Virus record (IMG/VR): IMGVR_UViG_3300032330_000956
Coordinates: 1 to 64,000 of that record
Length of the DNA stretch: 64,000 bases
DNA from: a virus
Lineage: Duplodnaviria > Caudoviricetes
Direction: 5' to 3' (one strand)
The position numbers and the translations under genes were made by a program. Below are positions 4,463 to 9,738 of the stretch, one piece after another. Numbering within the stretch: position 1 is the first letter of the stretch; every line of letters begins with the position of its first letter. The notes under the pieces were generated by a model. It saw only the letters and a program-made list of their open reading frames with translations. It was not told the origin of the DNA and made no database searches.

Positions 4463-4495
4463 TCCTTTTATTTTATGTAAGCTTTCGCCCTAATA

Positions 4496-4504
4496 ATTAT
4501 AACA
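4496..4504 (-). promoter_or_regulatory. Extended -10 promoter of the M23/amidase genes
   Basis: TGT-TATAAT; AAGGAG RBS downstream. Confidence 0.55.
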
Positions 4505-4510
4505 CAATAA

Positions 4511-4625
4511 GGGGTTGCAAGCACGAGCAGAAATTCAACAGCACATAAAATGTCTGGACTATCTGTGCCCCAACTGGGACTCTTACCATAAGTAACTACA
4601 CCACCCTAAGAAAGTGCTTGCAACC
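4511..4625 (-). ncRNA. Candidate ~115-nt structured ncRNA of unknown family
   Basis: Closed by a perfect 12-bp stem GGTTGCAAGCAC (4614-4625 paired with 4513-4524); internal hairpins; its 5' G is 6 nt downstream of a consensus promoter. Confidence 0.7.
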
Positions 4626-4631
4626 AATATC

Positions 4632-4660
4632 ATTGTACTAAATAATACTAAAGTTGTCAA
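4632..4660 (-). promoter_or_regulatory. Near-consensus promoter of the candidate ncRNA, embedded in the terL 3' end
   Basis: TTGACA (4655-4660), N17, TACAAT (4632-4637). Confidence 0.8.
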
Positions 4661-7477: not shown

Positions 7478-8089
7478 CTAGTAATTGTCTCCCAGCACTT
7501 CGGGCAGTTCTGCCCAAGGATACTTGCTACACATTTCTTGATAGATATAGCCATCCGCACAGAAATCATTACGATACCAGTATCCTGATTCTTTCCAAAT
7601 ATCTCTATGTGCAACAAGTTGCATTGCATCAATATGTGTTACAACTGGTGGCAAACCTGTAAACGGAACGACACCGCCATTCATTTTAAAATGCAAAACT
7701 TGAAAAATAACAATGCCAACATTAGTTTCATTTAACTTGTTGTTTATTTTTTCAAAAGCTTCTGGGTAAAATACGTTGTCTATATTAAATTGAATAAAGA
7801 ACTCTCCATTTGCTTGCCTCATAGCCAGATCTCTTGATGGATGACCCCATTCACCTAAATGATGGGAAGTATGAATAATGGTTGGATTTAGTCCTAATGC
7901 TTCAAAATCAATTTCATCTGAATATGGAACCTCTTTTGGACCATCGTGACAGATGATTAATTCAAAATCTTTAAATGTTTGATTTGCTAAAGATTCTATT
8001 CCTTTACGAAATCCATCTCTAGGAACATGCTTTTCATAGTCTACCGCAATAATAGAAAATTTAGGTCTTTGCATTATCTCTTCTCCCAA
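7478..8089 (-). CDS. GT2-family glycosyltransferase
   Basis: FSII...IESLANQTFKDFELIICHDG, and NIDN at the DxD position. Confidence 0.88.
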   Translation of the reverse strand: MGEEIMQRPKFSIIAVDYEKHVPRDGFRKGIESLANQTFKDFELIICHDGPKEVPYSDEIDFEALGLNPTIIHTSHHLGEWGHPSRDLAMRQANGEFFIQFNIDNVFYPEAFEKINNKLNETNVGIVIFQVLHFKMNGGVVPFTGLPPVVTHIDAMQLVAHRDIWKESGYWYRNDFCADGYIYQEMCSKYPWAELPEVLGDNY

Positions 8090-8727
8090 TAGTGTAAATT
8101 TTTATTTATATCATTAAATGGATTTTCGTAAGTTTCTTTATCTGGCATACCGCCCCATTTAGATATATAGTAATTTTGATTATGATCCCAGTCTGCATCA
8201 GTTGTTACAGGATTATCTGGGTCATGCTTTTGTGTGGCAGAGCCAACATGGTTAACTGTCACATCTGTTCTTACATAATTTTTTAATCCAGCCAAACGTA
8301 TTCTTCTATGCATATCATTGTCTTCAAAATATGCTGGAAAAAAGTTTTCATCAAACCACCCAACATTTTCAATCAATTGTTTAATATCAACAATGAAGCA
8401 AAAGAAATCCGCATTGCTTACCAGCTTAAATCCTGGCTCATATCGATTTTGATTTGGAGATACAATTACTGCTTTGGTGTATCTGATTGTATCATATAGT
8501 TCTTTGATTGCCCCTTCTGGAAAAGTAACATCATCATTGGCAATAATAGCATAATTGTTCCCGTATTGTAAAGATCTTTTCATTCCTTCATTCCAAGCCC
8601 CCGAAACTCCCCTATTTTCTTTCCAATTATCCATGATAATTGGTTGAACAGGATAGTCTACGGTTGCCATCAACTCGGTAAATAAGTCAAACTTGTTTAA
8701 TACGGGAACAATTAGCGATAGTGTCAT
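8074..8727 (-). CDS. GT2-family glycosyltransferase
   Basis: NRGVSGAWNEG, IANDD, GWFDENFFPAYFEDND and HVGSAT motifs. Confidence 0.88.
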   Translation of the reverse strand: MTLSLIVPVLNKFDLFTELMATVDYPVQPIIMDNWKENRGVSGAWNEGMKRSLQYGNNYAIIANDDVTFPEGAIKELYDTIRYTKAVIVSPNQNRYEPGFKLVSNADFFCFIVDIKQLIENVGWFDENFFPAYFEDNDMHRRIRLAGLKNYVRTDVTVNHVGSATQKHDPDNPVTTDADWDHNQNYYISKWGGMPDKETYENPFNDINKNLHYWEKR

Positions 8728-9738
8728 TTAGAGATTTAACCATTCTGGATGAGCAAGTGTCCACTCTACCGTTTTACGAATTGATTCTTCCAAAGGAATT
8801 GGTAAAGACCATCCAGTTTCAGAAATTTTTGTACCGTCAAGTGCGTAGCGCAAGTCATGCCCTGGGCGTGACGAATGAAAATCTTCCAATTCATAATTCA
8901 AAGGCTTCCCTACAGCATCTGCAATCATTAAAGCCATCTCAAGGTTATCCACTTCACGCTCTCCTACAATATGAAAACGCTGTGGCATATCTGCTTCTCC
9001 GTAGAGAGGAAAATCTTGATTAAGAACATGAAGCAACCCATCTGCTTGATTACGAGCATGCAGGTAAAAACGACTCCCAATCTCTCCTGTTGGAGATGCA
9101 TGAATTTTCATTGGTTCCCCACTGAGAACACGCTTAATTGTCATAGGCATAAACTTTTCTGGATCTTGTGTTTCACCAATAATATTCATTGTGTTGGTGA
9201 TTGCCAGAGGAATACCGTATGTACGCCAATAAGAAAATGCAATATCTTCTTGAGCAGCCTTAGAAGCTGAATACGGATTGCTTGGGAAATGTTGATCTAC
9301 CCATTCACGATGAGCATAACCTGCTGGTGCTGGACCATAAACTTCATCTGTAGATACCTGCAAAAACTTTTCTGGCTGTGCAATTCTAGCCCAGTCAAGT
9401 AGGTGACAAATAAGAGAAACATTGTTAATAATAAACGGGGCTGGATACTCAATGCTTCGATCAACATGGCTTTCGGATGCCACATTAATTACATAATCAA
9501 TCTTACCAAACTCATGTGCGGTTACTGCAGAAATTGGTGCTGTAAAGTCACACCTAATTACTTTAACTCGCTTGTAGGCATCTTCTATGCCCTCACAGGC
9601 TACACGAATTCTATCGGTCAAACCTTTATGTGTAAATGTTGTTGGGCAAACTACATACCAATCTGTATTTACCAAAATGTGGCGAAGTACATGACTTCCA
9701 ACAAAACCACTTGCTCCTGTGAGCAATACTCTTTTCAT
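8728..9738 (-). CDS. rmlB: dTDP-glucose 4,6-dehydratase-like NDP-sugar dehydratase
   Basis: TGASGFVG, AsESHVDRS, STDEVYG, YSASK and RPGHDLRY motifs. Confidence 0.88.
   Translation of the reverse strand: MKRVLLTGASGFVGSHVLRHILVNTDWYVVCPTTFTHKGLTDRIRVACEGIEDAYKRVKVIRCDFTAPISAVTAHEFGKIDYVINVASESHVDRSIEYPAPFIINNVSLICHLLDWARIAQPEKFLQVSTDEVYGPAPAGYAHREWVDQHFPSNPYSASKAAQEDIAFSYWRTYGIPLAITNTMNIIGETQDPEKFMPMTIKRVLSGEPMKIHASPTGEIGSRFYLHARNQADGLLHVLNQDFPLYGEADMPQRFHIVGEREVDNLEMALMIADAVGKPLNYELEDFHSSRPGHDLRYALDGTKISETGWSLPIPLEESIRKTVEWTLAHPEWLNL

Follow-up and report, generated by a model that had tools for sequence, protein, structure and literature searches.

Phage-encoded small RNAs with a conserved core antisense to helix 69 of 23S ribosomal RNA

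The spacer downstream of the terminase gene terL in an uncultured tailed phage encodes a structured RNA whose invariant core is the reverse complement of helix 69 (H69) of 23S rRNA and of the adjoining junction. The analyzed window comprises 64,000 nucleotides (positions 1 to 64,000) of the IMG/VR record IMGVR_UViG_3300032330_000956, a 79-kb contig of 63% completeness and 36% G+C content. The RNA is a member of a hitherto undescribed phage small-RNA family, the reality of which we consider practically certain. The core is very probably antisense rRNA by descent, and a function through pairing with the 23S rRNA of the host is the reading that the comparative sequence evidence moderately favours.

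The genes surrounding the element in the window all lie on the minus strand. The features of this region are as follows.

6470-4638, minus strand: terL gene, with the stop codon TAG at 4640-4638
4660-4632, minus strand: sigma-70 type promoter TTGACA-N17-TACAAT (TTGACA at 4660-4655, TACAAT at 4637-4632)
4513..4625, minus strand (read from 4625 to 4513): structured RNA gene of 113 nt, type 1 of the family
4614..4625, minus strand: 5' arm of the closing stem P1, GGUUGCAAGCAC, pairing with 4524-4513 in 12 perfect base pairs
4513..4524, minus strand: 3' arm of P1, pairing with 4625-4614; the two arms enclose 89 nt
4592..4610, minus strand (read from 4610 to 4592): invariant core CUUAGGGUGGUGUAGUUAC, antisense to 23S rRNA 1910-1929
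4567..4580, minus strand: internal hairpin GUCCC-AGUU-GGGGC of the predicted fold
4539..4547, minus strand: second conserved motif UAUGUGCUG, containing GUGC at 4544-4541
4530..4536, minus strand: degenerate, weakly conserved third arm GAAUUUC, antisense to 23S 1935-1941 (helix/loop 70)
4496..4504, minus strand: extended -10 element TGTTATAAT of the M23 peptidase gene, following P1 and conserved in relatives as TGnTATAAT
4462-4028, minus strand: M23 peptidase gene downstream of the RNA, starting 50 nt past the element

A first-pass annotation of this DNA had placed the promoter and the perfect 12-bp stem correctly. The promoter agrees with the consensus at 11 of 12 positions and is the top promoter-like site between 3500 and 7000; transcription is predicted to start at G4625, 7 nt past the -10 element. 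The 126-nt stretch that was folded has an energy of -42.1 kcal/mol (z = -3.5), which none of 200 shuffles equals, and the predicted fold of the element is a four-way (multibranch) junction with the 12-bp end stem and no T-loop. The complementary strand of the element folds nearly as well (z = -3.5), thus the strand is not decidable from the energy alone. There is no terminator 3' of the RNA within the window, which leaves the 3' end of the RNA undefined. Of the three sub-hairpins drawn in the first-pass annotation, CCC-AGTT-GGG stands, since the corresponding GUCCC-AGUU-GGGGC hairpin carries one-sided changes in close relatives that keep the pairing (it is absent from distant members), whereas the other two are not conserved as drawn. 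The core occurs as a single copy in the window. Upstream of terL (window 7478-9738, minus strand), two GT2 glycosyltransferase genes and an NAD-dependent epimerase/dehydratase gene (Pfam) form part of a sugar-modification island.

Relatives of the element were found by BLAST and by reading the DNA downstream of terL. TerL itself has more than 590 relatives in viral contigs, many of which contain the element. In total, about 80 viral contigs were found to have it; together with the other scaffolds described below, these contigs of the window type make the family widespread. A scan of the collection with the core pattern returned 86 stretches; five of them lie within open reading frames, where they encode LGWYSY, and were taken as chance matches, and the rest represent 45 distinct elements in 58 non-redundant neighbourhoods. 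The sequence of the closing stem varies among relatives and is always paired, and the segment shortly 3' of its 5' arm, CUUAGGRUGGURUAGUUAC, is invariant across them; YGUGC forms a smaller second motif. Outside the invariant 19-nt core, the columns average 52% identity. In the 31 distinct aligned type-1 members, 97% of the P1 stem cells pair and 10 of the 11 pairs show compensatory changes, which gives P1 a covariation score of 0.77 (0.31 in shuffled alignments, 0/500; at most 0.19 in slid controls). Pairing at P1 in this comparison far exceeds chance. The 38 distinct stems contain 24 internal G.U pairs and no C.A pair, on the terL/tRNA-sense strand only, and this restriction of G.U pairs to one strand indicates that the RNA is read on the terL-sense strand. 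All tRNA genes within 600 nt of the elements are co-oriented with them.

In most relatives, the element fills a slot in a tRNA array, its stem separated by 0-3 nt from the end of the upstream tRNA (Met-CAU, Ile-UAU, Asn or Gly) and by 1-3 nt from the start of the following one, frequently Pro-UGG. In the window, in L017 and in the L045-L050 group, a promoter ending 7-8 nt before the stem is found instead. The spacing to the tRNA end or to the promoter predicts the mature 5' end at the same base in both settings. The window RNA would thus be made from its own promoter, and the RNAs of the relatives would be cut out of tRNA arrays by tRNA-processing enzymes.

The element lies outside the known classes of structured RNA that were examined. 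Rfam 15 at E<=10 gave no match on the window element, nor on nine loci spanning both architectures of the family, and a scan of the whole window at gathering scores returned two tRNAs only. Neither ARAGORN nor the Rfam tRNA model (RF00005) matches the element, in line with the earlier statement that it is not a tRNA or tmRNA, and the view that it is not an SRP RNA, RNase P RNA or riboswitch likewise agrees with the empty Rfam result. Neither of the box C/D guide signatures RUGAUGA and CUGA occurs in the 113-nt sequence. The first-pass annotation had suggested a Y-RNA-like or 6S-like decoy, which would bind Ro60 or RNA polymerase, or else a packaging RNA, which would act with TerL or the portal. 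A long stem does join the ends of the RNA, a trait shared with Y RNAs, and terL is close in the window; however, at E<=10 the element has no match to YrlA (RF02553), Y_RNA (RF00019) or 6S RNA, a multibranch junction takes the place of the long interrupted helix of 6S RNA, and the 79-kb record (63% complete) has no TROVE (Ro60) gene, PF05731. Most relatives have the RNA in tRNA arrays or after other genes, away from terL, and since the tRNA-array slot is the usual one, the adjacency to terL reflects synteny and not a packaging link. With the rRNA complementarity left unexplained as well, a decoy or packaging function is very improbable. The anti-defence role that had also been put forward finds no support.

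The position of the element 50 nt upstream of the M23 start, with no terminator in between, could suggest a riboswitch or attenuator that acts in cis as the leader of the M23 peptidase gene. Against this, RNA and gene are separated by the conserved extended -10, in agreement with the first-pass annotation, which gave the M23 gene its own promoter; the downstream neighbour varies among the relatives (tRNA-Pro, M23 or an unrelated ORF), and there is no riboswitch match in Rfam. A leader function thus has an equally slight probability, and the earlier preference for a stand-alone small RNA holds, since in relatives the element sits between tRNAs or before unrelated genes. These observations support the element as an independent, conserved, structured small RNA outside every Rfam family. 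Between the extended -10 and the M23 ribosome-binding site, at window 4479-4491 (minus strand), there is a GNRA hairpin of the GGC-GAAA-GCU type, which covaries in relatives (GGC/GCC, AGC/GCU, GGU/ACC) with a GAAA or GAUA loop.

The decisive feature, overlooked in the first-pass annotation, is that the core is antisense to H69 of 23S rRNA. A search of the genomes of 185,579 species with the core pattern gave five matches, one of which, a 619-nt contig, proved to be 23S rRNA in reverse orientation. In E. coli rrlH numbering, the core corresponds to the reverse complement of G1910-G1929, a stretch that takes in the loop and 3' strand of H69 as well as its junction with helix 70, and the YGUGCAG motif matches 23S 1962-1968 in the same numbering. 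The 23S rRNAs of three Actinomycetota (Streptomyces, Arthrobacter and Tsukamurella) read GGUGGUAACUAUAACCAUCCUAAGG, as do all 80 metagenome 23S genes that the CCATCC pattern retrieved, whereas those of Paracoccus, E. coli and Priestia read GGCCG...CGGUCC. By this comparison, the GGAUGG of the phage core is the complement of the actinobacterial form of H69. The core is one nucleotide shorter than the perfect complement, so that one target A (1918 or 1919) stays unpaired and must bulge; the bulge is shifted or widened in rare variants (L053/L055/L074, L019 and L020). By our own estimate, the chance of a 19-mer match with one indel over about 9,000 rRNA positions is about 1e-6. Searches with blastn-short against E. 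coli rRNA were too noisy, and RNAduplex runs of the whole element against the full 23S rRNA were uninformative, producing large spurious duplexes, the same as those of shuffles; both were replaced by ungapped-helix and alignment tests.

A host 23S rRNA without one H69-loop A, which the core would match perfectly, was sought and rejected: it occurs only in one odd 619-nt MAG contig, in 0/200 genomes of the class, and the 80/80 metagenome genes keep both As. This contig, L168 (NZ_JBALTN010000040.1, 619 nt, from a Parasphingorhabdus MAG), is a 23S fragment with an actinobacterial-type H69 that misses one loop A. The CCAUCC-type H69 is found in none of 200 other genomes of its class, the same MAG holds two ordinary proteobacterial-type 23S pieces, and the contig is probably foreign to its bin or misassembled.

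The complementarity extends beyond the core. An ungapped scan against actinobacterial 23S 1850-2050 places the core on 23S 1910-1918 and 1919-1932, and a second arm on 23S 1962-1970, reaching 1980 in L142 and L154. In the window, this second arm is the family-invariant GUGC (23S 1964-1967), and in other members it comprises 7-19 nt (1962-1980). A third, GGAAUUUCGCUA-like arm, complementary to 23S 1931-1942, lies just 5' of the 3' arm of the stem and corresponds to GAAUUUC at 4536-4530 in the window. In a permutation test, the closing stem was removed, the 3' part was joined to the 5' part, and helix 71 (H71, 1945-1961) was deleted from the target. The re-joined members are all colinear with antisense 23S 1910-1980 minus H71, with z scores against shuffles from 6.1 (window) to 15.8 (L154). 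This colinearity after re-joining marks the window RNA, on alignment, as a circularly permuted antisense copy of domain IV with its end-stem at 1930/1931.

A second architecture, type 2, is found at L082, L084, L085, L093, L114, L121, L122, L125 and L136, and has the natural antisense order of second arm, 5-9 nt and core, with a tRNA immediately after the element. Its closing stem, of 13 bp, covaries too and differs from P1 (CCCAUAUGCCAGC with GCUGGCAUAUGGG, or variants of these). As aligned, type 1 is a circular permutation of type 2, with its ends within the stem inserted at 1930/1931. Every type-2 RNA is immediately preceded by a gene for a SpoU-family 2'-O-methyltransferase (PF00588, E 1e-27; L121:2221-3133) and a 137-aa phrog_2859 gene. 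A partnership of these two genes with the RNA was considered and set aside, as other lineages have them at a distance of 0.7-7.8 kb, to one side or the other, and the record of the window lacks them; we read their proximity as synteny. In addition, the tRNA array around the type-2 RNA of L093 contains a phage-encoded tmRNA-like gene (L093:811-1036, minus strand; RF00023, 45.4 bits with a cut-off of 47, E 7e-15).

The pattern of substitutions bears on whether the complementarity is still in use. Across the family, the core and its flank vary only by A>G in two columns and C>U in one, all opposite a U or G of the target, with one further A>G in L009; the arms outside the core show all kinds of change, except for the invariant GUGC. 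Across unrelated scaffolds, the type of the core shifts with the type of H69 (GGAUGG vs GGACCG), and the orientation of the element is always that of the local transcription signals.

These unrelated scaffolds came from a scan for the complement of the proteobacterial-type H69 (CUUAGGACCGUUAUAGUUAC), which revealed eight non-rRNA phage loci. For instance, in the L174 group UUAGGAC and GUCCUAG close the 14-nt loop CGUUAUAGUUACUU, directly after the major capsid gene and with a strong terminator next; L179 is a small RNA with a promoter at its start and a terminator at its end; L176, which lies 3' of a tRNA, follows antisense 23S minus H71 colinearly; and L182 has a 21/22 match. An intergenic spacer of the cultured Vibrio phages PWH3a-P1, qdvp001 and vB_VpaM_R16F contains CCUUGGGACCGUUAUAGUUAUGGC. 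This unannotated element (L308:684-810, that is, about 80870-80996 of PWH3a-P1, NC_020863.1; L310; L311) includes a 24-nt complement of 23S 1907-1930 with two departures from the perfect complement, both of them G.U, and a CGCUACC arm downstream; it is conserved among the three phages, and its flanks diverge. Carriers among cultured Vibrio phages make the question of function directly testable. The wobble-only changes, the loci in other scaffolds, the Vibrio phages and the consistent orientation together favour RNA pairing over mere descent, and they argue against recognition at the DNA level.

In the latter case, the element would be rDNA captured by the phage and used as the site of a homing endonuclease or of recombination. 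The rDNA segment 1910-1935 is a classic target of site-specific mobile elements, with the I-CeuI site and many intron insertion sites, and an HNH gene lies near type-2 copies. Nevertheless, the G.U pairs of the closing stem are confined to one strand, wobble-type changes in the core would be mismatches for DNA recognition, the orientation always matches local transcription, and the right half of an I-CeuI-type site (GGTAGCGA) is displaced by the stem, which makes a DNA-level role hardly credible.

A weightier alternative, which we still judge unlikely, is that the RNA descended from antisense rRNA and no longer pairs; the core and GUGC would then form a protein-binding or tertiary site in a compact four-way-junction fold, and the permutations would reflect the three-dimensional fold, as in ribozymes. 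RNAs with a compact fold typically show circular permutation with alternative closing stems, of which there are two here, GUGC is invariant though just 4 nt long, and parts of the core are able to pair internally; for example, the R of GURUAGUUAC also fits an internal G.U/A-U pair. Several further observations speak against pairing with rRNA: the core is fixed one nucleotide below perfect complementarity, the second and third arms have decayed in the subgroup of the window to GUGC and GAAUUUC, the core is predicted to be unpaired with a probability of no more than 0.4-0.55, and the RNA of the window lacks a terminator. On the other hand, the core tracks the H69 type even in a bare hairpin with a terminator, which has no room for a complex fold; every substitution in the core keeps the rRNA pairing; and no protein gene travels with the RNA, since SpoU and phrog_2859 are syntenic in some lineages only.

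We therefore return to pairing with 23S rRNA as the reading to be developed. In the 70S ribosome, H69 makes bridge B2a and lies buried. A 13-mer PNA directed against H69 invades its hairpin, shutting off translation and growth, according to the citations of Kulik et al. (2017) in PMC10777018 and PMC12828698, and the toxin MazF-mt6 cuts helix/loop 70 in 50S and not in 70S particles (PMC5408214). As H69 and H70 are reachable in the free 50S subunit and H69 is buried in the 70S ribosome, the free or immature 50S subunit or nascent 23S rRNA is favoured as the target. The core would pair in trans with H69 and its neighbours in 23S rRNA outside 70S ribosomes, be it in a free 50S subunit, a late assembly intermediate or nascent rRNA; such pairing would impede the joining of subunits or the late maturation of the 50S particle and leave alone the ribosomes that are already translating. 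A block of subunit joining or of the maturation of new 50S subunits is the variant that we favour, if tentatively. It is less probable, and rather doubtful, that the pairing tethers the RNA to the 50S subunit, and still less so that the third arm shields helix/loop 70 (UUCCU 1939-1943) from a toxin RNase. The benefit of striking 23S rRNA is not obvious, because the phage needs ribosomes. The broader proposition that phages of several lineages and host phyla encode natural antisense RNAs to H69-71, the inter-subunit element with the highest conservation in the ribosome, tuned to the rRNA variant of their hosts, and that these RNAs would seize, silence or re-route large subunits or their assembly, appears evenly balanced to us.

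The family can be compared with several known systems. CopA/CopT of R1, RNA I/RNA II of ColE1 and many sRNAs are trans-acting antisense RNAs with the recognition sequence in a loop. The phage RNAs resemble CopA and RNA I in having a short complementary segment, conserved above a variable scaffold, with substitutions that keep the pairing, and, in the L174 group, in presenting it as a loop before a terminator. Unlike CopA and RNA I, they would target rRNA rather than an mRNA or replication primer, they descend from the antisense of their target, and they exist in circularly permuted forms; colinearity with antisense 23S 1910-1980 minus H71 and a covarying closing stem are the hallmarks of the family. 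Stable RNAs of about 120-140 nt among tRNA genes, freed by tRNA processing, are also represented by species 1 and 2 of T4 (rnaC/rnaD), which have no known function and for which we know of no rRNA complementarity. The resemblance is that of phage-encoded RNAs located among tRNA genes, by description and not by sequence, and the new family offers a testable function for such long-unexplained stable RNAs in phage tRNA clusters. The snoRNA-type guides of eukaryotes and archaea pair with conserved rRNA segments during ribosome biogenesis; unlike them, the window RNA is viral/bacterial, has no C/D (UGAUGA, CUGA) or H/ACA boxes and no linked partner enzyme. The target H69 is shared with the anti-H69 PNA (Kulik et al., 2017, as described in PMC10777018 and PMC12828698), a man-made 13-mer with a peptide backbone, whereas the phage RNA is natural and longer, extends to the junction and H70, and is known from sequence.

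A full-text literature search returned no description of a phage RNA antisense to 23S rRNA. To our knowledge, no bacterial virus has been described that targets the ribosome itself by means of an RNA guide. If the pairing is real, these RNAs would be the first natural antisense RNAs against a bacterial rRNA and a new viral route to the translation machinery, and nature would have chosen the very site, helix 69 with bridge B2a, that drug designers hit with synthetic oligomers.

The core may also carry information about the host. The closest counterparts of TerL of the window, and of the capsid gene in related contigs, belong to Streptomyces phages of about 130 kb. Beyond the window, the record contains three perfect TCGAAC-N4-GTTCGA palindromes (73881-73896, 74537-74552 and 75997-76012), and a control with the reversed pattern gave 0; we take this pattern to be the actinobacterial LexA-box (SOS-box) consensus. 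The host is likely a freshwater actinobacterium, as far as these markers can tell. BLAST of the element against 50,697 phage records gave no cultured carrier of the actinobacterial-type family. Since the core is matched to the rRNA variant of the host, it could mark the host phylum for uncultured phages.

Other parts of antisense 23S rRNA have weaker counterparts in cultured phages. In the Staphylococcus Sextaecvirus phage vB_SpsS-DH5 and 'Arcanobacterium phage TPWB06' (L312:401-430 and L313:401-430), 30 nt right after an exonuclease gene resemble antisense 23S 1927-1956; the stretch GGGAUUUCGCUACCUU is two A>G changes from the complement, and with BLAST E values of 3-8 the similarity may be due to chance. 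In Enterobacter phage Arya and about eight related 41-kb phages (L309:501-541), 41 nt are 80% similar to antisense 23S 1935-1975 (E = 0.2), with 16 identical bases over helix 71, in non-coding DNA near an integrase-like ORF and a tRNA-Arg gene.
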